Source of the DNA: an uncultured Bacteroidota bacterium
Lineage (GTDB): Bacteria; Bacteroidota; Ignavibacteria; UBA10030; UBA8401
DNA length: 64,000 nucleotides
Assembly (NCBI GenBank): GCA_963772165.1
Contig: CAVYWA010000022.1
Span: 2,832 to 66,831 of the forward strand
Reading direction: 5' to 3'
Shown here: one piece after another, positions 1 through 62,687 of the stretch
How the letters are laid out: each line of letters starts with the position of its first letter
Position numbering within the stretch: position 1 is the first letter of the stretch
Program-made: the position numbers and the translations under genes
Notes under the pieces: model-generated
What the model was told of the DNA's origin: nothing
The model's database searches: none
What the model saw: the letters and a program-made list of their open reading frames with translations, nothing else

Positions 1-1375
1 GGCAAAAGGCTGTCCGCTTGAATGATCAGGTCCCGAAGCGTCTCGCCTGTTTCCAGCTGGTACCTGTCCGGGCGGTAGACAGCCCCGTCGATCACAACAT
101 AATTTTTTTGGATATCCTGGATGGAGAAAAACGTCACGGTATCGCCGTCGGCCACTGTATGGTCCTTGCCTTCATTCAGAATATCCCTGAGGTTAGCATC
201 AACAACGGTCCGCTCAAATTCTCCCCTCTTTCGTTTTTCAAACGGGATGATATGGTCCAACTGCACCCGCTCGAGGTACGTTGTGGGGAGAGGACCGCCG
301 GCGTAATCGACAACTTTTTTCAAATTCTCTTCCGGCAGAAGCTCGTAAATGCCGGGGCGGCGGATCTCGCCGTCGACCGTTACTGTTTTCCCCCGTGTCG
401 GGATAAAAATAATATCGTTGCTCTGAACACGGACGTCGTTGATCTTCTCCGAGCCCATGAGATATTTATAGAGATCGACGTGCGCGATCACTTTGTTGTT
501 GCGGATCAACCGGATGTCTCTCAAACTTCCTTTCACGGTCGGGCCGCCGACCCAGAAGAGAGAATTAAAGACGTTCGAGTACGTGCTGACCGCATATCCC
601 CCAGGGGCTTTGACCTCTCCCATGATAAAAACGAACTTCGGGCGGAGACGGGCGATGGTGACGTCGAGCCAAACATTCCGCGGTGTGTTGACCAGTCCCT
701 TAAACGATTGGGACATTTCTTTCGTAATTGCTTTCTGCGCCTCCTCGAGCGTAAGCCCTGAAACGAGCACGGGGCCGACTGTCGGAATAAAGACCCTGCC
801 TTCGTTGTCGACCTCAAGGTCGTTCCGCTGCTCGACTTGCCCCCAAACATTGACGCGAATGACATCGCCCGGCCCGATCAGGTATTCGGGGTCAACAGGC
901 CCGGCTGCCGGCTCGAATGCCGCCGGGATTTTCTCGAAAATATCATAACCAAAATAGTGCCTCCCTCCGGGACCAAGAAATTTCGAAGTGTCCACTACCG
1001 GCTGGGCAGTCGTCGATTCGGGCGCCGCGGTGCTTTGGGCCGACAGCGCGGCCGGCAGTTTATGCGTCGTATCGATTATCGGGGCTGATTGAACCGGTGC
1101 CGGTACAGGGGAGGTTGTTCAAATAGCTCTGAGAGGTCGATGCCGTACTGTTGCGCCTTTGCAATGGCTTGATCCATCGTCATTCCGTACTGGCTGATTT
1201 TTGCCTGGATCTGATCGGGGGTCATTGTCCCGAGCTTGGCCTTCGCTGCATCTATTTGCGTCTGGGTTTGCGCGAAACCAGAGTAAGAGATAAGAAATAA
1301 AGAGATAAGAGATAAGAGATAAGAGATAAGATTCGCTTTACTCAATATCGGACGATTTAAGAACATTTTTCGCAT
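1..1375 (-). CDS. SLBB-domain polysaccharide export protein (Wza/KpsD-like); runs off the window start; frameshifted around 960-1130
   Basis: ORF 1076..1375 gives a signal peptide and helical N-terminus. Manual minus-strand translation downstream gives YFGYDIFEKIPAAFEP..YLIGPGDVIRVNVWG..FIMGEVKAPGGY..GGPTVKGSLRDIRLIR, collinear with the paralogue at 37832..40348. Confidence 0.85.
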
Positions 1376-4540: not shown

Positions 4541-5842
4541 TCACGCCTTAAACACTCCGCCGCTTTTTCGCATGACGATGTTTCTTGTATCGACGACCGG
4601 TACGGTAAATTGCTCGAAATTGATTTTTTTGTATTCATCGTGGGCTGTTGCAACAAGAATGAGGTCGAAGGCGTTTGATACTTCGACTGACTTTCTTCCT
4701 GCAAATTTTGGAAATTCCCTCGTATGTTTGATTGCGGGAATATACGGATCGTTGTAACTTACCACAGCCCCTTTTTCTTCGAGCTTCTCCATCAGGTGAT
4801 ACGAGGGGGATTCACGGTCGTCGTCGACGTTCGCTTTGTACGCGAGGCCGAGCATCAGAATTTTTGCACCTTTCAGCGGCTTGCCGACTTCGTTTAATGC
4901 TTCCATAACTCTGCTGACGACAAAATCGGGCATTGCCGTATTGATTTCTCCAGCCAATTCAATGAACTTTGTCGTCACGCCGTACTCGCGCGCTTTCCAT
5001 GTAAGATAGAAAGGATCGATCGGAATGCAGTGGCCTCCCAGCCCCGGTCCCGGGTAGAACGGCATAAAGCCGAACGGCTTAGTCTTCGCTGCCTCTACAA
5101 CCTCCCACACATCGATTCCCATTTTCATGAAGGTCACTTTCAGCTCGTTGACCAGGGCAATATTCACGGCACGGAAAATATTTTCCATGAGCTTCGTTGC
5201 CTCGGCGACCTTGACGCTCGAAACCGGGACGGTTCGTACAACAATCTGCTTATAAAGGAGGTCGGCAACGGCAAGGCCGTCGGGAGAGGTCGAGCCGACA
5301 ACTTTCGGAATCGTTTCGGTCGTGTAATTGGGGTTGTTGGGGTCTTCCCGTTCCGGAGAAAATGCGACGTAAAAATCTTTATCCACCTTCAAGCCGTTTT
5401 TTTCGAGGATCGGGACCATCACTTCTTCCGTCGTGCCGGGATAGGTCGTCGATTCGAGAACAACCAGCTGGCCTTTGCGGATATGCGGTGCGATGGCTTC
5501 GCAGGTTGTGACGATAAACGACATATCCGGTTCTCTGTTCTTGTTGAGAGGCGTCGGGACCGCAATGAGGATGGCGTCGCATTCTTTCAAGCGGGAAAAA
5601 TCGGTCGTGACATGGAAGCGTCCGGAGGCGTTAGCGCGCTGGATTCTCTCCGAGGAAATGTGTTTGATGTACGATTTCCCTTTCGCGAGGGAATCGACTT
5701 TCGATTTGTCGATGTCGAACCCGATCGACCGGAATCCCTTCTCCACAAAACAATGGAGGAGCGGAAGCCCGACATATCCCAGCCCGATAACGCCGACGAC
5801 GAATGATTTATTTTCAAGCTTTGCTAGCAGTTCGGTTTTCAT
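4541..5842 (-). CDS. Nucleotide-sugar dehydrogenase (UDP-GlcNAc 6-dehydrogenase, WbpA/WecC family)
   Basis: GLGYVGLP, ESTTYPGTT, FSPERED, GGHCIPIDP, GLAYKANVDDDRESP. Confidence 0.92.
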   Translation of the reverse strand: MKTELLAKLENKSFVVGVIGLGYVGLPLLHCFVEKGFRSIGFDIDKSKVDSLAKGKSYIKHISSERIQRANASGRFHVTTDFSRLKECDAILIAVPTPLNKNREPDMSFIVTTCEAIAPHIRKGQLVVLESTTYPGTTEEVMVPILEKNGLKVDKDFYVAFSPEREDPNNPNYTTETIPKVVGSTSPDGLAVADLLYKQIVVRTVPVSSVKVAEATKLMENIFRAVNIALVNELKVTFMKMGIDVWEVVEAAKTKPFGFMPFYPGPGLGGHCIPIDPFYLTWKAREYGVTTKFIELAGEINTAMPDFVVSRVMEALNEVGKPLKGAKILMLGLAYKANVDDDRESPSYHLMEKLEEKGAVVSYNDPYIPAIKHTREFPKFAGRKSVEVSNAFDLILVATAHDEYKKINFEQFTVPVVDTRNIVMRKSGGVFKA

Positions 5843-5846
5843 GTAT

Positions 5847-6026
5847 GAGTCCTGAGTCCGGAGTTCTGAGTCCGTAGTCCTGTGTCCGGAGTTCTGAGTC
5901 CGGAGTCCATAGTCTGTGGTAAAGGGTTCTGTTTATACCATCTCAAACCTAAAATTCCTAATTCATCATTCTTATCTCTTATCTTCTTACTTTCTTACTT
6001 CTTACTTCTTACTTCTTACTTCTTAA
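5847..6026. repeat. Heptamer arrays (AGTCCNG)n at 5847-5920 and (TTCTTAC)n at 5968-6026
   Basis: Directly visible; the second array overlaps the fcl 3' end. Confidence 0.9.
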
Positions 6027-7025
6027 CCACCCCTCGTACCACTCAATCGTCTTTTTCACCCCTTCCGCCAGCGGAACTTTTGCCTTCCATCCCAGCGCAT
6101 TGATCTTGCCGACATCCAGCAGTTTTCTCGGCGTACCGTCCGGCTTCGAAGTATCAAACACGATTTTCCCTTGATACCCTACACTTGCGCCGATCAACTG
6201 TGCCAGTTCGAGAATCGAGACATCTGTCCCCATGCCAATATTAATGATATCACTCTCATTATACTGTTCCATAAGAAAGACACACGCGTTCGCCATGTCG
6301 TCGGCATAGAGGAACTCCCGTTTCGCTTTTCCCGTCCCCCATAATGTCACCGATGGGGACTGCGCATTCCGTGCTTCAACGAACTTACGTATCAACGCCG
6401 GCAACACGTGAGAATTCTGCAGATCGAAATTGTCATTCGGCCCGTAGAGGTTCGTGGGCATCACCGAAATAGAATTCGTTCCGTACTGCTTGTTGTACGC
6501 CTGGCACATTTTGATGCCGGCAATTTTTGCCACGGCGTACGCTTCGTTCGTCGGCTCCAGCTTGCCGTCGAGCAGGTATTCTTCCTTGATCGGCTGAGGC
6601 GAGAATTTAGGATAGATGCAGGAGCTTCCCAGAAAACAAAGCTTCTTCACGCGGTTCAAATACGAGGAATGGATGACGTTGTTCTGGATTTGTAAATTGT
6701 CGAAGATAAACTCAGCGGGATAGGTACTGTTCGCGTGGATCCCTCCGACTTTAGCAGCCGCCAAAAAAACATATTCCGGCTTTTCCTTTTCAAAAAAATC
6801 TTGAACTGCTCCCTGGTTTTCAAGTTCCAGCTCGCCGTGAGTGCGCATGACAATGTTCGCGTATCCTGCGGATTGGAGCGCACGTACAATCGAAGAGCCG
6901 ACAAGTCCGCGATGACCGGCAACGTATATTTTAGATGAATGGTCCGTAGTGGTTAGTCCGTGGTCTGGAGTCCGTGGTCCGTAGTTCGTGGTCCTGAGTC
7001 CGTGGTCTGGAGTTGTGAATTTCAA
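6009..7025 (-). CDS. fcl: GDP-L-fucose synthase (start uncertain)
   Basis: [59 protein letters not shown]. Confidence 0.95.
6940..7012. repeat. Heptamer array (RGTCCGT/GGTCTGG)n, downstream arm of the inverted pair around the four-helix-bundle gene
   Basis: Directly visible; reverse complement of 7446-7501. Confidence 0.92.
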
Positions 7026-7043
7026 ATTTATAATTTTTTATCT

Positions 7044-7403
7044 TTACTGCTTAAGATACTTGATAAATCCGCCGATCATCCGTTTAGCCTCCGAAGCTTG
7101 TTCGAAACATTTTTGAAAGTCCGGTTCAACGATATATCCGGAATCCAATGCTACATACAATAACGATTGGACTTCAGACGCTGAACGATACGAATACCTC
7201 AAAAAGCTTACGAATGCTTTATCGGATCCTGAGTCAAAACCTTCCGCGATATTAGACATTATTGAAACGCTGGCACGCTGTATTTGATCGCGTAATCCGA
7301 AATCTTTAAAGAACTTCTGTTGAGCAGTAATTCTATAGACAGCCTTTGTTAATTCCCTTCCTTTTTTCCATGAATCAATGTCTTCGAAACGCACAATCTT
7401 CAT
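7044..7403 (-). CDS. Four helix bundle protein (23S rRNA IVS-protein / Avd-like family)
   Basis: FEDIDSWKKG..LRDQIQRASVSIMSNIAEGF..FLRYSYRSASEVQSLLYVALDSGYI. Confidence 0.92.
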   Translation of the reverse strand: MKIVRFEDIDSWKKGRELTKAVYRITAQQKFFKDFGLRDQIQRASVSIMSNIAEGFDSGSDKAFVSFLRYSYRSASEVQSLLYVALDSGYIVEPDFQKCFEQASEAKRMIGGFIKYLKQ

Positions 7404-7445
7404 ATTCCCTCCCCATATTTTATTAGCTATGAACCTCCACCTGCT

Positions 7446-7501
7446 GACTCCGGACCACGGACTCAGGACTACACGGACTTCGGACCACGGACTTCGGACT
7501 A
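7446..7501. repeat. Heptamer array (ACGGACT/TCGGACC)n, upstream arm of the inverted pair
   Basis: GACTCCGGACCACGGACTCAGGACTACACGGACTTCGGACCACGGACTTCGGACT; opposite orientation to all other AGTCC arrays. Confidence 0.92.
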
Positions 7502-8543
7502 ATACCCCCTCTTCGAGATCTTTTCATAATCAGCCTTCACCATAATTTTCACTAATTCCTCGAAACTTTGTCTTCGGCACCCATCCGAGCTTTTCTTTCG
7601 CCTTCGCCGGATCGCCGATCAACAGTTCTACCTCCGTCGGCCGGTAATAACGGGGATCGACCTCGACGATCGTCTTTCCGGTTTTCTTGTCGACACCTTT
7701 TTCGTCCTTCCCTTCGCCTTCCCATGCGAGTTCCATTGCTAACTCCTTGAAAGCGAGGTCGGCAAATTCTCGAACGGTGTGCGTCTCGCCGGTGGCCAAC
7801 ACAAAGTCTTCCGGCTGGTCCAATTGAAGCATTCTCCACATGCCGTCGACATATTCCGGCGCGTAGCCCCAGTCGCGCTTCGCATTCAAGTTTCCCAGGG
7901 AGAGTTTCGCTTCCAACCCCAGTTTAATTTTCGCTGCAGCCCTCGTAATTTTTTTGGTGACGAACGTTTCGCCCCTCCGGGGAGATTCATGGTTGAAAAG
8001 AATTCCATTGCAGGCGAAAATATTGTACGCTTCCCGATAGTTTATGATAATCCAATAACCGTAAAGTTTTGCAACTCCGTACGGGCTGCGAGGATAGAAC
8101 GGTGTCTTTTCATTTTGAGGAATTTGCTGGGCTTTGCCGAATAACTCGCTCGTCGATGCTTGATAGAACTTTGGTTTGATGCCGACTTCACGAATCGCAT
8201 CCAGAAAGCGGACTGTTCCGATGGCATCGACTTCGGCCGTATACTCAGGAAGCTCGAAGGAGACCTTGACATGACTTTGCGCGGCAAGGTTATAGATTTC
8301 GCCGGGATGGATCCTTTCCAGAATCCGGTTCAAATTGCTCGTGTCGGTCACATCGCCATAATGGAGAAAGAGTTTCTTCCCCAAAATTTCCGGGTCGTTA
8401 TAGAGATGGTCAATTCTTCCGGTGTTGAACGAACTGCTGCGGCGGATAATGCCGTGTACTTCGTACCCCTTTTGGAGGAGCAGCTCAGCAAGATATGACC
8501 CGTCCTGCCCTGTGATGCCGGTGATAAGTGCTTTTTTTGTCAT
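7499..8543 (-). CDS. gmd: GDP-mannose 4,6-dehydratase (one-base frameshift near 7562; restored end [21 protein letters not shown])
   Basis: [47 protein letters not shown]. Confidence 0.96.
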
Positions 8544-8575
8544 GGTAAGTTCGTCGTTGTTTCGGTTTCGATTCT

Positions 8576-8675
8576 TGAGTCCGTAGTCCTAAGTCCGTAG
8601 TCCTGAGTCCGTAGTCCTGAGTCAATTTATCTTTTCTCTTATCTCTATTTCTTATCTCTTATTTCTTATCTCTTA
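8576..8675. repeat. Composite heptamer array (AGTCCGT-AGTCCTR)n plus (TCTCTTA/TTTCTTA)n
   Basis: Directly visible; on the minus strand it begins at the TAA stop of 8673..9626. Confidence 0.93.
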
Positions 8676-9626
8676 CTTTCCCAACCACGCAGCGAGCAGG
8701 TCGGTAAGAGTCTGCTTCATTGGAATTTCCGGCTGCCAGCCCGTTGCATGCCGCAGCAATTCATTCGACCCTGCAAGAAGCTGGATATCGTAGCCTCGCA
8801 ATCTTTTCTCTTCAACGTTCAATTCGAATTGTACTCCGGTTATTGCCTCGTACATCCGGATAATCTCCTCAATGGAAAATACATTTCCCGAGCAGACATT
8901 AAAAATAAAATCTTTATCATTGGAAACCGTTCCCATCAGCCAATATGCCTGCACGACATCGCGCACGTCGGTAAAATCCCTCCGGGGTTTGACGTTTCCA
9001 ATTTGAATCACGGGGGAGGCATGGCTCTTGAGGGCAGCCGAGATTTGCCGCGCAAGGGATGAGCAAATGAAGGACGGTTTCTGCCGCGGACCCGTATGAT
9101 TGAAAGGGCGGGCGATAACGATGTTCATTCCTTCATACGTTTTGTACGTTTGTGCAATGTAATCGATGCTCGTTTTGCTGGCGGCGTATGGATTCATCGG
9201 ATGCGGGATCGATTGTTCGGTATGCACCAAAGGAAGACCTGCGGTTTCACCGTAAACCTCGCCCGACGTGACAACGACGATCCTTGGTTTAATGTCGAGC
9301 GCTTTGACCGCCTCAAAAATATTGATGGGGGCAATGACGTTGACCTTAAACGTTTCGGCAGTATGTTCAAACGAACTTGGGACGAACGGTTGTCCGGCAA
9401 GATGAAAAATAATATCCGGTTTGACTTCCTTCACAATCCTGAAAATCGATTGAAAGTCGACAATGTCACATTCAAACAAACGGATGCTTTTTTCATGAAA
9501 ACGAATGTTGTCATTCTTCTCAAGATCCCGTACTACTCCAAAAACATCTGCTAGGCTGTTATTGATAACATAGTCCGCGAGGTGGCTTCCGGCAAAACCG
9601 CCTACTCCGGTAATGAGTACTTTCAT
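8673..9626 (-). CDS. Extended SDR, Rmd-like (GDP-4-keto-6-deoxy-D-mannose reductase / Gmd-family)
   Basis: GVGGFAGSHL, HLAGQPFVPSS, SGEVYG, PYAASK, RPFNHTGPRQ, RDFTDVRDVV. Confidence 0.8.
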   Translation of the reverse strand: MKVLITGVGGFAGSHLADYVINNSLADVFGVVRDLEKNDNIRFHEKSIRLFECDIVDFQSIFRIVKEVKPDIIFHLAGQPFVPSSFEHTAETFKVNVIAPINIFEAVKALDIKPRIVVVTSGEVYGETAGLPLVHTEQSIPHPMNPYAASKTSIDYIAQTYKTYEGMNIVIARPFNHTGPRQKPSFICSSLARQISAALKSHASPVIQIGNVKPRRDFTDVRDVVQAYWLMGTVSNDKDFIFNVCSGNVFSIEEIIRMYEAITGVQFELNVEEKRLRGYDIQLLAGSNELLRHATGWQPEIPMKQTLTDLLAAWLGK

Positions 9627-10767: not shown

Positions 10768-10777
10768 GATTTATAGT

Positions 10778-10830
10778 CGAATAGTGGAATGATGGAATAA
10801 TGGAATAGTGGAATGGTGGAATGGTGAAAT
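10778..10830. repeat. Octamer array (GGAATRRT)n, downstream arm of the inverted pair
   Basis: CGAATAGT GGAATGAT GGAATAAT GGAATAGT GGAATGGT GGAATGGT GAAAT. Confidence 0.93.
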
Positions 10831-11243
10831 CATAGGGCTTCTATCCAACTTCCTTCTTTCTGCTTAGCCTGCAATGATTTCTTCAACGCAAGCAATTTAT
10901 TTTCGACCGAATAATGCAAAACATCGAATTCTTCAAACGATGTCTTTGAGATAACTCCGATTTCTTTGAATCCAATCATCCTTGTAAATAATTCTCCTGA
11001 GGATCCGAGGGCAATATTCAAAAATTGAAGATATTCTCGAATCGACCTTCGACAATAACCTTCTGCAATGTTTGAAGAAACTGATTGTGCAGCATTCAAA
11101 AGCTGAGATCGTAATTTAAAATCGACGAATCCCTCTTCCAGGATGAGGCTGCAAATCCAGCGAAACAAATACATCGCCTCATTCCACACCTCTAACTTCA
11201 TATATCCCCTGTTTACATTCCTGCGCCTTGTATATTCCTCCAT
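10830..11243 (-). CDS. Four helix bundle protein (23S rRNA IVS-protein / Avd-like family)
   Basis: GYMKLEVWNEA..LRSQLLNAAQSVSSNIAEGYCRRSIREYLQFLNIALGSSGEL. Confidence 0.92.
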   Translation of the reverse strand: MEEYTRRRNVNRGYMKLEVWNEAMYLFRWICSLILEEGFVDFKLRSQLLNAAQSVSSNIAEGYCRRSIREYLQFLNIALGSSGELFTRMIGFKEIGVISKTSFEEFDVLHYSVENKLLALKKSLQAKQKEGSWIEAL

Positions 11244-11252
11244 AAAACACCC

Positions 11253-11308
11253 CCAATTCCATTATTCCACTATTCCCCCATTCCATAATTCCACCATTCC
11301 AATATTCC
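11253..11308. repeat. Octamer array (CCANNATT)n, upstream arm of the inverted pair
   Basis: CCATTATT CCACTATT CCCCCATT CCATAATT CCACCATT CCAATATT CC; reverse complement of 10778-10830. Confidence 0.93.
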
Positions 11309-40648: not shown

Positions 40649-40766
<118 letters not shown>

Positions 40767-40987
40767 TTTAAAAATTGCAACCGAGAAGACTCCCGCCGAA
40801 AGCGGGAACGAAACCTGAGCATTCCGCTAAAACCTTCCGAAGGTTTCCGCGAAAGCGTAACAAAAACTTCATGTTGTGTTGCATCGATGTAAAACCCTTC
40901 GGAAGGTTGTTTCACCGATTTTTTTCTTTAGCGCACTTTCCAATTAAGTTTATTGATGCACAACGTTGTGTATACAATAAAAAATAT

Positions 40988-44010
<3,023 letters not shown>

Positions 44011-44239
44011 AAAAAATCTTTTATTGAACACACAACGTAGAATCCCGCCCAAAAATCTGAACGAGACGGTGCATCAATAAACTTATATGGAAAGTTGATC
44101 TATGAAGCTTGTTACATAATGCTTTTGGTTTCGAAAAAATCTTTGTGACGGATTTTTGTTCGCCCGCCATCCTAAGACAGCAGACAACGACTCGTCCGAA
44201 TATAAAATTTTTTCTTCTCGATTGTCAAAGAACAGCAAG

Positions 44240-44314
44240 AAATTTTCAAATTGCAATTTTCGATTTTTCAATCGTCAACCAATTGAAATTTGCAAATCGA
44301 AAATTGAAAATTTC
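44240..44314. repeat. AT-rich hairpin built from inverted heptamers (AAATYGA-like) in the ITS; second copy at 44451-44511
   Basis: AAATTTTCAAATTGCAATTTTCGATTTTTCAAT...ATTGAAATTTGCAAATCGAAAATTGAAAATTT. Confidence 0.8.
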
Positions 44315-44350
44315 CTCGTGGAGCTAATCCTCCTTCGGAGGATAACCTCG

Positions 44351-44425
44351 TGGAGCTAAGCGGGATCGAACCGCTAACCTCCCCGCCTAGGCGGGGCGCT
44401 CTCCAAAAATCTGAGCAATAACTCC
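44351..44425 (-). ncRNA. tRNA-Ala-derived tRNA-like element with altered anticodon arm
   Basis: GGAGTTA TT GCTC AGATTTTTGGA GAGC G CCCCG CCTAGG CGGGG AGGTT AGCGG TTCGATC CCGCT TAGCTCC A folds as a cloverleaf. Confidence 0.7.
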
Positions 44426-44515
44426 TTAATTAAACAAAGAACAAAAAAAGAAATTTTTCGATTTTCAATTGCTTGTCAATCAAAGATTGCAAATCGAAAC
44501 TTGAAAATTTCTTCG

Positions 44516-44588
44516 TGGAGCTAACCGGGATCGAACCGGTAACCTCCTGGTTGCAAACCAGGCGCTCTCCCAATTGAGCTATAGCCCC
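44516..44588 (-). tRNA. tRNA-Ala(TGC)
   Basis: GGGGCTATAGCTCAATTGGGAGAGCGCCTGGTTTGCAACCAGG..TTCGATCC..TAGCTCCA; G3:U70 present. Confidence 0.97.
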
Positions 44589-44620
44589 ATAGCATCCGTG
44601 GTTTTCGCTTACGCCAAGTG

Positions 44621-44694
<74 letters not shown>

Positions 44695-44802
44695 ATGGTC
44701 AGTTAAGGTTAAAAGAAAAATGTGTGCACAGCAGCAAGTGAAAAACAGTCAAGGAATATTATTCTAAGTTGATATCGTCCCATCTTTCGATGGAGACATG
44801 CT

Positions 44803-46343
<1,541 letters not shown>

Positions 46344-57236: not shown

Positions 57237-59609
57237 TTGATAAAAGAAAAGGAAGCAATCACAATGGGAAAGTCACTACTTCTGCTCGTTTTATTTTGCG
57301 CAATAGCAGGCGCGCAGCAATTAAGCAATCCACAGCAAACTCCAGACACGGCCAACAAACGTCTCTTCACTCAGAATAAGGGACAATGGAACCCCGTGGT
57401 AAATACGGACACTCCCTCCTTCTCGCCGGTATCAGATACAATTGACGCCAAAGTGATCACGGATAGAAGGGTATTTCAAAAACATGAACATAAAGATCGA
57501 ATGACCCTTTCAAAAGTCATTAGCAGCAGGGCTGCAACAGCATTGAAGACAGAAGCCGATACCGGCTCGGTTTATTGGCAACAAGCCAATGGACCTTATG
57601 GAGTGGATGTGACTTCCATAGTGATCAATTCATCCGGGAACATTTTTGCAGGAACTGATCGAGGAATATATCTTTCAACTAACAATGGGAGTAGTTGGGC
57701 ACAGGAAAATAATGGTCTGACTAACCCGGCAGTGAGATCTTTAGCGATCAATTCATCTGGATATATTTTTGCAGGAGTTCGCGGAGCAGTCTGTCTTTCA
57801 ACAAATAATGGCAGTAGTTGGACTTATGTAGATAGTGGTTTGGCTGACGTGTACGTGAATTCATTAGCGAGCAATGCATCGGGGGACATTTTTGCAGGAA
57901 CTTATGGAGAAGGAGTATATCTCTCAACAAATAATGGAAGCGGTTGGACAGAGGTAAATAATGGTTTGACGGACACGGATGTGTTGTCTTTAGCGATAAA
58001 TTCATCGGGAAACATTTTTGCAGGAACTGACGGAGGAATATACCTTTCAACAAATAATGGGAGTAGCTGGACAGAGGTAAATAATGGTTTGACGAACACG
58101 GACGTGTTGTCTTTAGCAATCAATTCATCGGGAAATGTTTTTGCAGGAACTGATGGAGGAATATACCTTTCAACAAATAATGGGAGTAGTTGGACTCAGG
58201 TAAATAGCGGTTTGGCGAACACGGAGGTGCTTTCATTAGCAATCAATGCATCGGGAAATGTTTTTGCAGGAACTTATGATAGAGGCGTTTATCTTTTGAC
58301 AAGTAACGGCAACAGCTGGACCTGCGTAGATAGTGGTTTGGCAAGCACGAATGTGTATTCATTAGCGATCAATGCATCGGGGAACATTTTTGCTGGAATT
58401 GGCGGAGGCATTTATCTTTCTACGAATAATGGGAGTAGTTGGACAGAAGCAAATAATGGTCTGAGGGGTGCGAAGGTCTTGTCTTTCGCGATCAATTCGT
58501 CGGGGAACATTTTTGCTGGAACTGATGAAGGAATATATCTTTCAACAAATAATGGGAGTAGTTGGACTCAGGTAAATAACGGATTGGGGAATGCGGATGT
58601 GTGGTCTTTAGTGATGAATTCATCTGGGTATATTTTTGCAGGAACCTATGGAGAAGGAGTATATTTTTCAACAAATAATGGCAGCAGTTGGACACAGGTA
58701 AATTATTCTGATTTGTCGTACAAGAATGTGCAGGCATTAGCGATCAATTCATCGGGGTACATTCTTGCAGGCATTCATGATGGGGGCGCCTATCTGTCAA
58801 CAAATAATGGCAGCAGTTGGATTCGGGTAGATAGCGGTTGGACGACAGCGAATGTGCTGTCATTCGCGATCAATGCATCGGGAAACATTTTTGCAGGAAT
58901 TGAAGGAGGAGTATATCTTTCGACAAATAATGGAAGTAGTTGGACTAACATAGGTTTGACGAACACGGGGGAGGTGTTTTCTTTAGCGATCAATGCATCG
59001 GGGGACATTTTTGCAGGAGAGTATAGAGAAGGCGTTTATCTTTCAACAAATGATGGTACTAGTTGGACTCAAACAAGTTTGGACAGCATGTTTGTATATG
59101 CATTGGCGATTAATAGATCGGGGGACATTTTTGCAGGAACTACTAGTGGAGGAGCTTCTGGAGGAGCAGTATATCATTCAACAAATAATGGGAGTAGTTG
59201 GACAGAGGTAAATAATGGTTTGACGAACACTAATGTGTATTCATTAGCGATCGATTCATCGGGGTATATTTTTGCAGGAACTGCGGGAGGTGTTTTTCGA
59301 TCAATGAATTCGACAACTGACGTAAAAACACAACACACTATTGCAAAGGAATTTGCTTTGTTACAAAATTATCCAAATCCGTTCAATCCAAGCACAGTCA
59401 TCAGCTATCAGCTTCCAGTCAACGGTTACGTTACCTTGAAAGTTTATGATGTGTTAGGTAGAGAGGTGAAAACTCTGGTTAACGATCGTCAGACTGCGGG
59501 CACTCACTCGGTTACGTTCGACGCGCGCACGTTAGCGAGCGGAGTGTATTTCTACAGGCTTAGTGCTGGGAGTTTTGTTAGCACGAAGAAATTGATGTTG
59601 ATCAAGTAG
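57237..59609 (+). CDS. Secreted 14-repeat BNR-type beta-propeller protein with secretion CTD (likely start MGKSLLL)
   Basis: 14 copies of SLAIN.SG.IFAGT.GG.YLSTNNGSSWT; QNYPNPFNPST CTD. Confidence 0.92.
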   Translation: MIKEKEAITMGKSLLLLVLFCAIAGAQQLSNPQQTPDTANKRLFTQNKGQWNPVVNTDTPSFSPVSDTIDAKVITDRRVFQKHEHKDRMTLSKVISSRAATALKTEADTGSVYWQQANGPYGVDVTSIVINSSGNIFAGTDRGIYLSTNNGSSWAQENNGLTNPAVRSLAINSSGYIFAGVRGAVCLSTNNGSSWTYVDSGLADVYVNSLASNASGDIFAGTYGEGVYLSTNNGSGWTEVNNGLTDTDVLSLAINSSGNIFAGTDGGIYLSTNNGSSWTEVNNGLTNTDVLSLAINSSGNVFAGTDGGIYLSTNNGSSWTQVNSGLANTEVLSLAINASGNVFAGTYDRGVYLLTSNGNSWTCVDSGLASTNVYSLAINASGNIFAGIGGGIYLSTNNGSSWTEANNGLRGAKVLSFAINSSGNIFAGTDEGIYLSTNNGSSWTQVNNGLGNADVWSLVMNSSGYIFAGTYGEGVYFSTNNGSSWTQVNYSDLSYKNVQALAINSSGYILAGIHDGGAYLSTNNGSSWIRVDSGWTTANVLSFAINASGNIFAGIEGGVYLSTNNGSSWTNIGLTNTGEVFSLAINASGDIFAGEYREGVYLSTNDGTSWTQTSLDSMFVYALAINRSGDIFAGTTSGGASGGAVYHSTNNGSSWTEVNNGLTNTNVYSLAIDSSGYIFAGTAGGVFRSMNSTTDVKTQHTIAKEFALLQNYPNPFNPSTVISYQLPVNGYVTLKVYDVLGREVKTLVNDRQTAGTHSVTFDARTLASGVYFYRLSAGSFVSTKKLMLIK

Positions 59610-62320: not shown

Positions 62321-62362
62321 TGCATTCCCCTCATATTTTTTTCTGTCATCCATCCTTTTCAT

Positions 62363-62687
62363 TGTCATCCTGATCCCGCCGCTTTATGGCGGGAGAAGGA
62401 TCCACAACACTGCACTGCCGTAACGGGAGGATGTCCCATCAGAAAAACTTACGGGCCACCAGACTGCAGTGCCATGGATTCTTCGTCGCTACGCTCCTCA
62501 GAATGACAAAGACTGTTGCCTTTTCATTGTCATCCTGATCCCGCCGCTTTATGGCGGGAGAAGGATCCACGACACTGCACTGCCGTAACGGTAGGATGTC
62601 CCATCAGAAAAACTTACGGGTCGCCAAACTGCAGTGTCATAGATTCTTCGTCTCCCGACGAAAAGCGTCGGGATCCTCAGAATGACA
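62363..62687. repeat. Two tandem palindromic REP-like elements (TGTCATCCTGA...TCAGAATGACA), period 165 bp
   Basis: 62363-62508 and 62528-62687 are near-identical except for the right-hand internal hairpin. Confidence 0.92.

Follow-up and report, generated by a model that had tools for sequence, protein, structure and literature searches.

Inverted heptamer arrays around a PF05635 gene between gmd and fcl: a candidate intervening-sequence-type cassette in an operon mRNA of an uncultured Ignavibacteria genome

The gmd-fcl junction

We analyzed a 64,000-nucleotide stretch of DNA (the window) from an uncultured Bacteroidota bacterium. Between gmd and fcl, the window contains a small PF05635 gene enclosed by two arrays of 7-nt units in inverted orientation (here called a cassette, with a 5' and a 3' arm), and a second cassette is found 3.4 kb away in the same operon. 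The features are as follows (positions in the window).

10773–11308, minus strand: second cassette, between ugd and uxs, a PF05635 ORF with inverted arms (5' arm 11256–11308, ORF 10830–11243, 3' arm 10773–10830)
8576–8623, minus strand: array in ordinary orientation before gmd, same class as the arms of the gmd-fcl cassette
7499–8543, minus strand: gmd (GDP-mannose 4,6-dehydratase), with an assembly frameshift near 7563; intact in other contigs
7446–7501, minus strand: 5' arm of about 8 degenerate heptads (sense strand: RGTCCNN)
7404–7445, minus strand: spacer from the 5' arm to the start codon, with a G-run (Shine-Dalgarno-like), GGGGAGGG, at about 7407–7414
7044–7403, minus strand: gene of a PF05635/TIGR02436 four-helix-bundle protein (119 aa; HMM matches)
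7014–7043, minus strand: spacer from the stop codon (TAA 7046–7044) to the 3' arm, read from the sequence
6940–7013, minus strand: 3' arm of about 10 heptads (sense strand: NNGGACY)
6009–6929, minus strand: fcl (GDP-fucose synthase), conserved part
5846–5908, minus strand: array in ordinary orientation before ugd, same class as the arms of the gmd-fcl cassette

The base at 7563 is absent from the contigs of three of the four metagenome runs covering the region, and dropping it restores the frame to a 347-aa Gmd with its stop codon at TAG 7501–7499. The 5' arm starts inside this restored stop codon, which makes up the first unit of the array, and it is the sole reversed one among the seven AGTCC-type arrays in the window; both points had been made in a first-pass annotation of this DNA and hold. 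The 3' arm shares its type and orientation with the arrays before other genes of the operon, and one metagenome contig carries a 14-nt (2-unit) length variant of it at 6955. The conserved N-terminus of fcl directly follows the 3' arm, and the fcl reading frame is open upstream across the arm, up to a TTG at 7025. The gmd stop and the fcl start are within about 25 nt of each other in 17 of 30 loci of the same family, so the gene at 7044–7403 does split a normally adjacent pair, as had been proposed. The flanking genes gmd and fcl lack a G-run like that of the cassette ORF. By eye, a G-run is found 5–10 nt 5' of the start codon in 11 of the 12 PF05635 loci of the genome, and one precedes the start at 26 of 76 loci from a cross-phylum survey (described below), as compared to 4 of 56 downstream host genes.

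The cassette protein matches PF05635 (E 7e-33; 113.5 bits, cut-off 33.8) and TIGR02436 (E 1.4e-32; 112.1 bits, cut-off 24), in line with its earlier assignment to the four-helix-bundle family of ORFs found in 23S rRNA intervening sequences (IVSs). PF05635 is the only Pfam family that it matches, with no Y1 (IS200-like) transposase. The conserved motif described for this family is GxxRxxxSxxxNxxE; R43, S47, N51 and E54 are present in the cassette protein, with Q rather than G at the first motif position (Q40, S47 and N51 are invariant, and E54 is nearly invariant, among 11 paralogues). Sequence matches to solved structures were found for PDB 2gsc (E 1.3e-10) and 2rld (E 3e-4), and members of the PF05635/S23p family are reported to form pentameric toroids.

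The 5' array (7446–7501) is the reverse complement of the 3' array (6940–7013): ungapped arm pairs of 26–30 nt are 77–92% complementary, and TRF detects period-7/14 arrays on both sides of the gene. When the minus strand of 6930–7510 is folded, the predicted structure has an energy of −188.7 kcal/mol (z = −6.3; 0 of 100 shuffles are equally stable), and 54 base pairs, including just one G-U pair, connect the cassette ends, which matches the earlier expectation of a stem of about 50 bp looping out the ORF. The predicted duplex of the arms has −89.9 kcal/mol (−31.1 +/− 4.5 for shuffles). Duplex energies also agree with the earlier suggestion that the 5' arm could pair with other AGTCC arrays of the operon (−85.8 kcal/mol with the array before gmd and −79.0 kcal/mol with the one before ugd); since this pairing is almost equally strong, the looped-out fold is not the sole possibility. 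Among arm mismatches, 82 are wobble-compatible in the sense RNA and 79 in the antisense RNA (236 are transversions), i.e. there is no G-U wobble asymmetry as a sign of RNA-level selection. A constraint on RNA only does not predict this missing bias, which fits with homogenization at the DNA level. No Rfam family matches positions 6800–7650 at E ≤ 1, and the Rfam matches in the window are to rRNA and tRNA only; the 23S gene in the window (40986–44010) has no ORF-sized insertion.

Cassettes in the genome and across phyla

The second cassette also has inverted arrays as arms, but their unit is another one, of 8 nt (GGAATNNT); the two ends of this cassette are connected by 66 bp. In total, PF05635 has 12 matches in the genome and PF13366 has 6, distributed over 5 loci. 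The 12 PF05635 copies are scattered, each flanked by housekeeping genes, and the paralogues share 17–46% identity; since none are near-identical, there is no sign of recent transposition. We scored arms by local alignment (RNAduplex applied to 120-nt flanks was too noisy). In a genome-wide count over crude ORFs of at most 1500 nt, 11 out of 16 PF05635 or GxxExxY ORFs have an arm score of at least 15, as compared to 13 out of 2887 other ORFs; chance association of arms with ORFs of these families is excluded. Arms are weak or missing at 3 of the 12 PF05635 loci. Where present, they are cassette-specific: within the genome, none of 132 cross-pairings reaches a score of 13, while the diagonal has a median of 21.75. 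We rejected a classical transposon or MITE because the arms differ between copies (0 of 132) and the paralogues are only 17–46% identical.

For the cross-phylum survey, we used a 4-sequence alignment as the query, which represents the NIAEG-type subfamily only, and collected 80 homologous loci (76 usable) from more than 15 phyla. Arm scores of at least 13 were found at 58 of the 76 loci (versus 9/456 cross-locus and 1/70 displaced controls) and scores of at least 15 at 50 of them (versus 3/456 and 0/70, respectively), and 18 of the 76 loci have weak or no arms. Taken together with the 11 of 16 within the genome, the 58 of 76 across phyla give the enrichment of inverted arrays around family members that the first-pass annotation had proposed to look for. 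The best period is 7 in 43 upstream and 45 downstream flanks (n = 76 loci). GT recurs in phase in 39 upstream flanks but only 3 downstream ones, and AC in 9 and 38, respectively; arms can be 100–125 nt long (up to about 125 nt in a congener). Out of 67 loci, 50 have both neighbors on the strand of the gene and 6 have both on the other strand. Close homologues are found in unrelated operon junctions (uvrB-uvrA, waaA-lpxK and ABC transporter pairs), and genes of the PF05635 family are also reported inside cas operons. Identities across phyla (50–63%) are as high as within the family, suggestive of horizontal transfer. We found no homologues in the phage collection; plasmid homologues amount to 11 records, mostly from Nostocales and Riemerella. 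In a control set, Bacteroides thetaiotaomicron also had a PF05635 match.

A second cargo family has the same architecture. Genes of the PD-(D/E)XK-like GxxExxY family are enclosed by arms with a conserved motif of their own (CACAGAG/CGCAAAG-type), and 46 of 71 GxxExxY loci have an arm score of at least 15.

Dispersed arrays and concerted change between congeners

Heptamer arrays are common in this genome: a period of 7 was assigned to 149 of the 323 arrays detected by TRF, and 162 of 215 short-period arrays lie between genes. Of 201 other short-period arrays, 145 could be assigned to one of 9 cassettes by a match to its arms; 50 decoy arm pairs taken from other phyla drew 1.3 matching arrays on average. 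The gmd-fcl cassette is the only gene-bearing member of its genome-wide heptamer class. Ten cassettes fall into ten different classes, though three classes contain most of the arrays (for ten random arrays to be all in different classes, P is about 0.02), and the unit of the second cassette is found in only 2 other arrays. We also identified 24 'empty' inverted-array hairpins with loops of 5–85 nt, many of which span the entire intergenic spacer. In three distant phyla, the arm heptad is likewise dispersed (245, 55 and 91 hits, versus 0 for a control pattern). Relatives that lack PF05635 have 0 heptamer arrays in 371 kb versus 12 in 400 kb in carriers, a correlation from a handful of related genomes that fits either direction of cause.

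Arm units differ between congeners, and so do the dispersed repeats. Triple GGACT heptads occur 69 times in this genome (G000), 107 in G001, 139 in G002, 29 in G012 and 0 in G011; for triple CGAAC heptads, the numbers are 3, 1, 14, 32 and 177, respectively. The arm unit and the genome-wide class thus change together between congeners, so the gene and the repeat family appear to be a co-evolving pair. Orthologues of the cassette have arm units GTCCGNN, GTTCGNN, GTCCAAG and GTTATGG. The first-pass annotation had raised co-variation of the unit with the protein, and this held in part: the two arms co-vary in orthologues (mean pairing 33.1 on the diagonal versus 14.2 off the diagonal), but orthologues that are 64–82% identical bear different units, and therefore the arm unit is not a simple tracker of protein divergence.

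Presence/absence variation, also raised earlier, was found at two orthologous junctions, gmd-fcl and ftsA-ftsZ. Cassette-free congeners keep the 3' arm at gmd-fcl, where it is the ordinary pre-start-codon array of the genus, and only the inverted arm is missing; the inverted arm thus comes and goes with the gene. At ftsA-ftsZ, the gene is present in 5 of 25 genomes, and three congeners have empty hairpins of the CAGAATN class in the spacer. The ftsA-ftsZ orthologues have weak arms under the scoring used. The loops of the empty ftsA-ftsZ hairpins show no evident residual homology to the ORF, so deletion and a pre-insertion state look alike at this junction. In G003 the cassette is found in a different spacer, and the ugd-uxs junction is occupied by different lineages. 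No RNA run was listed for positions 5800–8700. In four low-depth metagenome DNA contig sets, no contig joins gmd directly to fcl; contig joints that skip 2737–2741 nt connect repeat arrays in the metagenome runs.

A possible intervening-sequence-type cassette and its alternatives

There is a close likeness to the ORF-bearing 23S IVSs of the Coxiella, Leptospira, Brucella and Xanthomonas type, in which a long stem encloses a PF05635/S23p ORF in its loop, in sense orientation. The Coxiella IVS is described as having an S23p ORF, a 28-bp terminal stem (inverted repeats) and, in the stem region, 2–3 tandem heptamers whose copy number varies between strains; RNase III cleavage was mapped within this stem, excision by this enzyme was demonstrated, and the authors consider the ORF probably not translated. 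The shared features (gene family and a stem with heptamers) agree with the earlier comparison of our locus to excised 23S IVSs. Unlike those, the gmd-fcl cassette lies between protein-coding genes in an mRNA instead of a 23S helix, and its arms are longer (54 bp) and are part of a repeat class that is dispersed over the whole genome. REPIN-RAYT systems consist of REP doublets and a single-copy Y1 transposase, with about one gene per repeat family, and the two change together. Our cassettes resemble them in several ways: inverted copies of one repeat flank a single gene, the repeat also occurs in dispersed empty hairpins, each repeat class has about one gene, and gene and repeat change together. 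They differ in their protein, a four-helix bundle that lacks a transposase or nuclease fold, and in their repeats, which are 7-nt units in tandem instead of 20–40-nt palindromes. Intergenic heptamer direct repeats are comparable to the cyanobacterial STRR. The TAACTGA heptamer arrays of Beggiatoaceae, Cyanobacteria and Bacteroidetes are described as intergenic direct repeats upstream of start codons, in hosts with weak Shine-Dalgarno usage; their function is given as unknown, and a trans-acting binder was postulated and not identified. Our arrays share with TAACTGA/STRR arrays the period of 7, the intergenic location within operons and the position immediately 5' of start codons. In contrast to the TAACTGA arrays, which are direct and for which the accounts used here report no gene family, they form inverted pairs around a specific gene, and their classes map onto individual paralogues. 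The DGR accessory protein Avd is described as having a homologous four-helix-bundle fold and the same family assignment. No template/variable repeat is found near the cassette, and identity with a DGR was rejected because a genome-wide search for reverse transcriptases gave 0 RVT_1 matches.

Our tentative reading, whose chance of being right we put slightly below even, is that the locus is an IVS-type cassette in an operon mRNA, with a stem that is cut, co-evolving with its own dispersed repeat class. It builds on the anatomy, enrichment, cassette-specific arms, class correspondence and concerted change given above. A small PF05635 gene with its own putative ribosome-binding G-run sits co-directionally in the tight gmd-fcl junction, bracketed by the inverted arrays of 7-nt units. 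Once transcribed with the operon, the arms would anneal to each other, imperfectly, over about 54 bp and leave the ORF in the loop. If the cassette behaves like the ORF-bearing 23S IVSs, RNase III, for which the genome has a gene (rnc), would then cut the stem and yield separate gmd, cassette and fcl messages. The protein probably recognizes or maintains its own repeat class, a role with circumstantial support from the approximate one cassette per class and the genome-wide class switches. We infer stem formation in vivo, RNase III cleavage and the contact between protein and repeat. The 7-nt period, the GT/AC phasing and arms of 100–125 nt go beyond what RNase III explains. The first-pass annotation had proposed to view the gene plus its cognate arrays as a self-contained unit akin to an IVS; the enrichment, the stable predicted stem and the presence/absence at junctions support this view.

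Alternatively, the arrays and empty hairpins could be DNA substrates of a gene-repeat system of the REPIN/RAYT kind, i.e. single-strand hairpins or homology tracts that the enclosed protein (the four-helix bundle, or the PD-(D/E)XK-like GxxExxY protein in the parallel family) binds, spreads or maintains, with the RNA stem as a by-product. We consider this unlikely, despite much that it would accommodate: a gene flanked by an inverted dispersed repeat with about one gene per class (P about 0.02), the 24 empty hairpins (many filling the spacer), the genome-wide class replacement between congeners, the lack of G-U bias in arm mismatches, and a nuclease-fold family (GxxExxY) with the same architecture and its own arm motif (46/71). 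The different spacer in G003, the different lineages at ugd-uxs, the cross-phylum identities of 50–63% that suggest horizontal transfer, and the heptamer arrays in PF05635 carriers (12 in 400 kb, versus 0 in 371 kb elsewhere) point the same way, although the last of these comes from few related genomes and reads both ways. What speaks against a DNA-level system is a four-helix bundle with no recognizable catalytic domain, together with the absence of near-identical paralogues (17–46%), target-site duplications and conserved termini; moreover, the strong co-orientation with host operons (50/67) is what one expects of a function at the RNA level rather than of a DNA element.

It is quite improbable, in our judgment, that the gene is a passive passenger, a selfish or neutral small ORF tolerated in hairpin loops only, with arrays and hairpins acting as host mRNA stabilizers or translation leaders and no functional link between protein and repeat. 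Cassette-free gmd-fcl junctions of congeners lack the inverted arm, the unit of the second cassette is rare elsewhere (2 other arrays), ten cassettes occupy ten classes though three classes dominate, each of two unrelated cargo families comes with a distinct arm type, and the association persists across more than 15 phyla. A passenger would nevertheless be compatible with the empty CAGAATN-class hairpins at ftsA-ftsZ (three congeners; gene in 5/25 genomes), with a 3' arm that is an ordinary pre-start array kept by cassette-free congeners and whose G-poor composition fits a leader free of start codons, with the heptamer direct repeats before start codons reported independently of PF05635, and with an acetyltransferase gene of this genome (C16:5375–5845) that is likewise enclosed by inverted arrays. 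TRAP binds GAG repeats, and in a similar way an oligomeric ring protein might bind the RGU triplets that recur in phase along its own 5' arm, in competition with the stem, leading to autoregulation and perhaps acting on same-class arrays in other mRNAs; in a variant, the 5' arm RNA would be an antisense to such arrays. GT phased every 7 nt (39/76 upstream versus 3/76 downstream flanks), the reported pentameric toroids and the PDB 2gsc match, the complementarity of the 5' arm to every same-class pre-start array in the operon, and the trans-acting heptamer binder already postulated are consistent with such a regulator. We nonetheless find it very unlikely, given units that differ among orthologues 64–82% identical, the weak polarity that dispersed arrays of this genome show with respect to genes (51 versus 38 before starts), and RGT-type units in only 2 of its 4 NIAEG-type members (by eye).

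PF05635 is among the commonest bacterial families of no known function (found in rRNA IVSs, cas operons and DGRs), and heptamer tandem repeats have been catalogued for decades with no explanation. No paper found in our literature search connects inverted heptamer arrays with the PF05635 genes that they flank outside rRNA. The physical and evolutionary link between gene and repeat is reproducible, and would give an experimental handle on both problems; it may also account for the recurrence of small genes between coupled housekeeping genes (ftsA-ftsZ, gmd-fcl, uvrB-uvrA). A broader proposal, which we regard as possible but doubtful, is that PF05635 proteins are the missing trans-acting partners of heptamer-repeat families (STRR/TAACTGA), with each paralogue paired to, enclosed by and co-evolving with its own class, in a pan-bacterial system similar to REPIN-RAYT. 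If so, this would be a gene-repeat symbiosis built on a non-enzymatic ring protein, rRNA IVSs would be merely the copies that landed in rRNA, and GxxExxY proteins would be a second such system with repeats of their own. For annotation, ORF extensions encoded by arrays and apparent operon interruptions may be one recurrent element. A genuine RAYT with REP flanks is found separately in the same genome (C10:65986–66681).

The gmd-fcl cassette and its predicted stem

The polysaccharide-precursor operon on the minus strand of the window carries a small gene of the PF05635/TIGR02436 four-helix-bundle family between gmd and fcl, enclosed by inverted short-period arrays (the 5' and 3' arms; gene and arms together are called a cassette here). 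A second such cassette lies in the same operon.

Cassette features in the window
7446-7501, minus strand: array of degenerate heptads upstream of the PF05635 ORF (5' arm), reverse complement of 6940-7013
7044-7403, minus strand: PF05635/TIGR02436 ORF of 119 aa (PF05635, E 7e-33; TIGR02436, E 1.4e-32), between gmd (end 7499) and fcl
6940-7013, minus strand: array of degenerate heptads downstream of the ORF (3' arm), reverse complement of 7446-7501
10830-11243: second PF05635 gene, between ugd and uxs, 3.4 kb from the first, with inverted arrays whose unit differs and is 8 nt long

The first-pass annotation had described the gene as splitting a normally adjacent pair, and indeed 17 of the 30 same-family loci have gmd ending within about 25 nt of the fcl start, so the gene interrupts a normally tight pair. 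As assembled, gmd is frameshifted; the base at 7563 is absent from contigs of three of the four metagenome runs on the region, and without it Gmd has 347 aa and its TAG stop (7501-7499) falls inside the first repeat unit, as the same annotation had claimed for the restored stop. Two heptads are missing at 6955 in one contig, which indicates that array length varies. The suggested stem of about 50 bp was recovered by folding the transcript of 6930-7510 (-188.7 kcal/mol, z = -6.3, no equally stable fold in 100 shuffles), whose two ends are joined by 54 base pairs (66 bp for the ugd-uxs cassette). The proposed alternative pairing with other arrays of the operon also agrees with the predicted energies, which for the 5' arm are -89.9 kcal/mol with its own partner, -85.8 with the array before gmd and -79.0 with that before ugd. 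All that the first-pass annotation saw in the sequence here is confirmed.

No canonical start codon stands beside the conserved N-terminus of fcl in this genus (…KIYVAGH; region 6930-7025, minus strand), and its frame is open upstream through the heptad array to a TTG at 7025. Translation of fcl either uses a non-canonical start or takes in the array, which would add about 30 aa at the N-terminus. In other genera a start (ATG, TTG or GTG) and then E-K-x-x-K-I-Y-V come straight after the gmd stop.

Orthologous junctions and a survey across bacteria

Orthologues of the gmd/fcl-operon gene in congener genomes are 61-82% identical, with arm units GTCCGNN, GTTCGNN, GTCCAAG and GTTATGG/GTTCGGA. Within each species both arms (up to ~100-125 nt long) carry one common unit, and the mean pairing score is 33.1 within species vs 14.2 across species. 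In congener G003, the orthologue sits one spacer on, between fcl and ugd. The gmd-fcl junctions of G007, G006 and G003 lack the cassette and keep the ordinary-orientation arrays, while the inverted arm is absent, so this arm travels with the gene. Among 25 usable loci of the ftsA-ftsZ spacer, an orthologous gene (53-65% identical, weak arm scores) is found in 5, from five genera, an empty CAGAATN-heptad hairpin in 3 congeners (no leftover ORF sequence was seen in their loops), and neither in 17. Both junctions thus show the presence/absence variation expected of a self-contained unit.

The ugd-uxs junction (loci L031, L032, L033 and L036) holds different PF05635 lineages in different congeners, their N-termini forming one type in G011 and G003, another in G001 and G010, and a third in the source genome (G000), which suggests that cassettes were replaced. 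In G009, an unrelated, GC-rich and internally complementary insert of ~287 nt occupies the gmd-fcl spacer (L164) where the cassette would be. Downstream of the operon in G001 (L031, 17398-17874) are four copies of a unit with CGCAAAGC-type octamer repeats, spaced by ~151 nt.

We scanned one genome per species across bacteria with a four-sequence alignment of one PF05635 subfamily (NIAEG-type). The 80 loci obtained span more than 15 phyla, plus one archaeon; 76 have usable flanks. The arm score is that of a gapped local alignment between the upstream flank and the reverse complement of the downstream flank. It reaches at least 13 in 58 of the 76 loci (vs 9/456 cross-locus pairings and 1/70 pairs displaced by 600 nt) and at least 15 in 50 (vs 3/456 and 0/70), so the anticipated enrichment of inverted arrays around family members is found in this survey. 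Across the 76 loci the best period is 7 in 43 upstream and 45 downstream flanks; GT is phased at 7 nt in 39 upstream vs 3 downstream flanks, mirrored by AC (9 upstream vs 38 downstream). Of 67 loci, 50 have both neighbours co-directional with the gene, and 6 have both opposite. Close homologues occupy unrelated junctions (uvrB-uvrA, waaA-lpxK, ABC transporter pairs), and a family member has been reported between cmr3 and cmr2. Nostoc and Calothrix plasmid copies, inspected by eye, have inverted short-period arms too; no record of the phage collection searched matched a PF05635 homologue.

Genes of a second cargo family, GxxExxY (PF13366, PD-(D/E)XK-like fold), show the same layout in metagenomes, where 46 of the 71 usable loci have arm scores of at least 15. 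A motif common to these arms (CACAGAG / CACGGAG / CGCAAAG type, period 8-10) is what makes the cross-locus control high (44/426).

Cassettes and repeat classes of the source genome

The source genome (4.13 Mb, 28 contigs) contains 12 PF05635 matches and 6 PF13366 matches, the latter at five loci, of which three have RCGCAAAG-type octamer arms.

GxxExxY genes with inverted short-period arms (contig:position)
C23:229834
C11:130846
C16:112991
C11:292676
C12:341890 (broken by stop codons)

An arm score of at least 15 is reached by 11 of 16 PF05635/GxxExxY ORFs and by 13 of the 2887 remaining crude ORFs up to 1500 nt long. Several of these 13 have clear causes: RAYT/REP, an IS, an acetyltransferase between inverted arrays, and gmd, which scores because it borders the inverted arm. 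Arms are weak at three PF05635 loci (C9:417858, also with stop codons; C5:2638; C23:43604). Arms are cassette-specific (0/132 cross-pairings reach score 13; diagonal median 21.75). By eye, a G-run lies 5-10 nt ahead of the start in 11 of the 12 printed PF05635 loci and before none of the nearby host genes.

The acetyltransferase gene (hexapeptide-repeat, 156 aa, C16:5252-5955) lies between inverted GATAAGA-type arrays and, with an arm score of 37.5, is the top case beyond the two cargo families. The RAYT-type transposase gene (193 aa, C10:65986-66681), with a perfect 33-nt palindromic REP on either side, is a classical REPtron coexisting with the heptad system.

TRF reports 323 arrays in this genome, 149 of them of period 7. 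Inverted array pairs with 5-85-nt loops (24 listed) often fill a whole intergenic spacer; the small genes lie inside pairs whose gap is 370-435 nt. The arms of nine PF05635 cassettes match, between them, 145 of the 201 short-period arrays lying beyond the cassettes (38, 37, 30, 14, 11, 8, 3, 2 and 1 arrays per cassette); for 50 arm pairs taken as decoys from other phyla, the mean is 1.3 matching arrays (median 0, maximum 10). If ten cassettes were placed at random, the probability of each having a class to itself (a class being the dispersed arrays that share one cassette's arm unit) would be about 0.02, a rough value as the classes are defined from the arms themselves. Genome-wide counts of triple heptads agree with the arms of each species' own cassette: in G000, G001, G002, G012 and G011, respectively, GGACT is found 69, 107, 139, 29 and 0 times, and CGAAC 3, 1, 14, 32 and 177 times. 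Genomes of Acidobacteriota, Dehalococcoidia and Chlorobiaceae also carry scattered copies of the arm heptad (245, 55 and 91 hits, respectively, vs 0 for the reversed control pattern). Period-7/8 arrays number 0 in 100, 140 and 131 kb of three relatives without PF05635, and 9, 2 and 1 in 160, 120 and 120 kb of three carriers; with so few genomes, and related ones, this is only a hint.

Inverted GATAAGA-type arrays also occur in the window (1280-1331 and 1397-1437 vs 1760-1806). They enclose an AGTCCGT array of 17 units and a tandem unit of 83-106 nt present in 2-3 copies; the stretch 1280-1806 contains no ORF that reaches 40 aa.

Competing readings and known systems

The best supported reading of the gmd-fcl element is an IVS-type cassette (IVS, intervening sequence of 23S rRNA) in an mRNA. 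Within the operon mRNA its arms would pair, and the resulting stem would be cut by RNase III, an enzyme that this genome encodes; this would free the cassette message and separate the flanking ones. A purely RNA-level account, however, leaves the 7-nt period and the GT/AC phasing unexplained; moreover, G-U bias is absent from the arm mismatches (82 wobble-compatible in the sense RNA vs 79 in the antisense, besides 236 transversions), and the 5' arm is predicted to pair nearly as well with the pre-gmd and pre-ugd arrays. That repeat classes correspond to cassettes, and that classes switch genome-wide between congeners, makes a partnership between each PF05635 gene and its repeat class likely. 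It could act on DNA in a REPIN/RAYT-like manner, on RNA through a ring protein that would bind phased triplets, or on both; the gmd-fcl protein matches 2gsc, a solved pentameric member of the family (E 1.3e-10). Alternatively, arrays and hairpins could be host features whose loops merely tolerate a small ORF. This would account for hairpins that hold no gene and for a 3' arm of the ordinary kind, but fails on the inverted arm that goes with the gene, on the second cassette's rare unit and on each cargo family having its own arm type, and we consider it improbable. The interpretation of gene plus cognate inverted arrays as an IVS-like unit holds in outline, given the enrichment in 58/76 loci, the stem and the gene-linked inverted arm. 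The element, whose proposed function is a prediction, is best classed as a variant of the ORF-bearing intervening sequence that sits in operons and is linked to dispersed families of heptamer repeats.

The Coxiella 23S IVS is described as 428 nt long, with an S23p (PF05635) ORF, a 28-bp terminal stem that RNase III cuts internally, and two or three tandem heptamers, depending on strain, in its 5' part; its authors doubt that the ORF is translated. As far as that description goes, the ORF, terminal stem and tandem heptamers are shared, whereas the cassette studied here lies in an operon and is tied to dispersed repeats. Heptamer direct-repeat arrays just 5' of start codons have been reported in Beggiatoaceae, Cyanobacteria and Bacteroidetes, and an RNA-binding regulator, itself not identified, was proposed for them; the available text of these reports makes no tie to PF05635. 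The family is also reported to be homologous to the DGR protein Avd; unlike a DGR, the source genome has no reverse transcriptase. No paper in our literature search describes inverted heptamer arrays flanking PF05635 genes outside rRNA.

The window has an rRNA operon with tRNAs at 40649-46343, whose 23S match (3025 nt vs 2925 in the model) leaves room for small insertions only and no ORF-bearing intervening sequence. Other repeats in the window are a long tandem repeat at 57619-59290 (period 123/249/372, ~13 copies, 71-75% matches) and a 165-nt repeat of 1.8 copies at 62354-62652.
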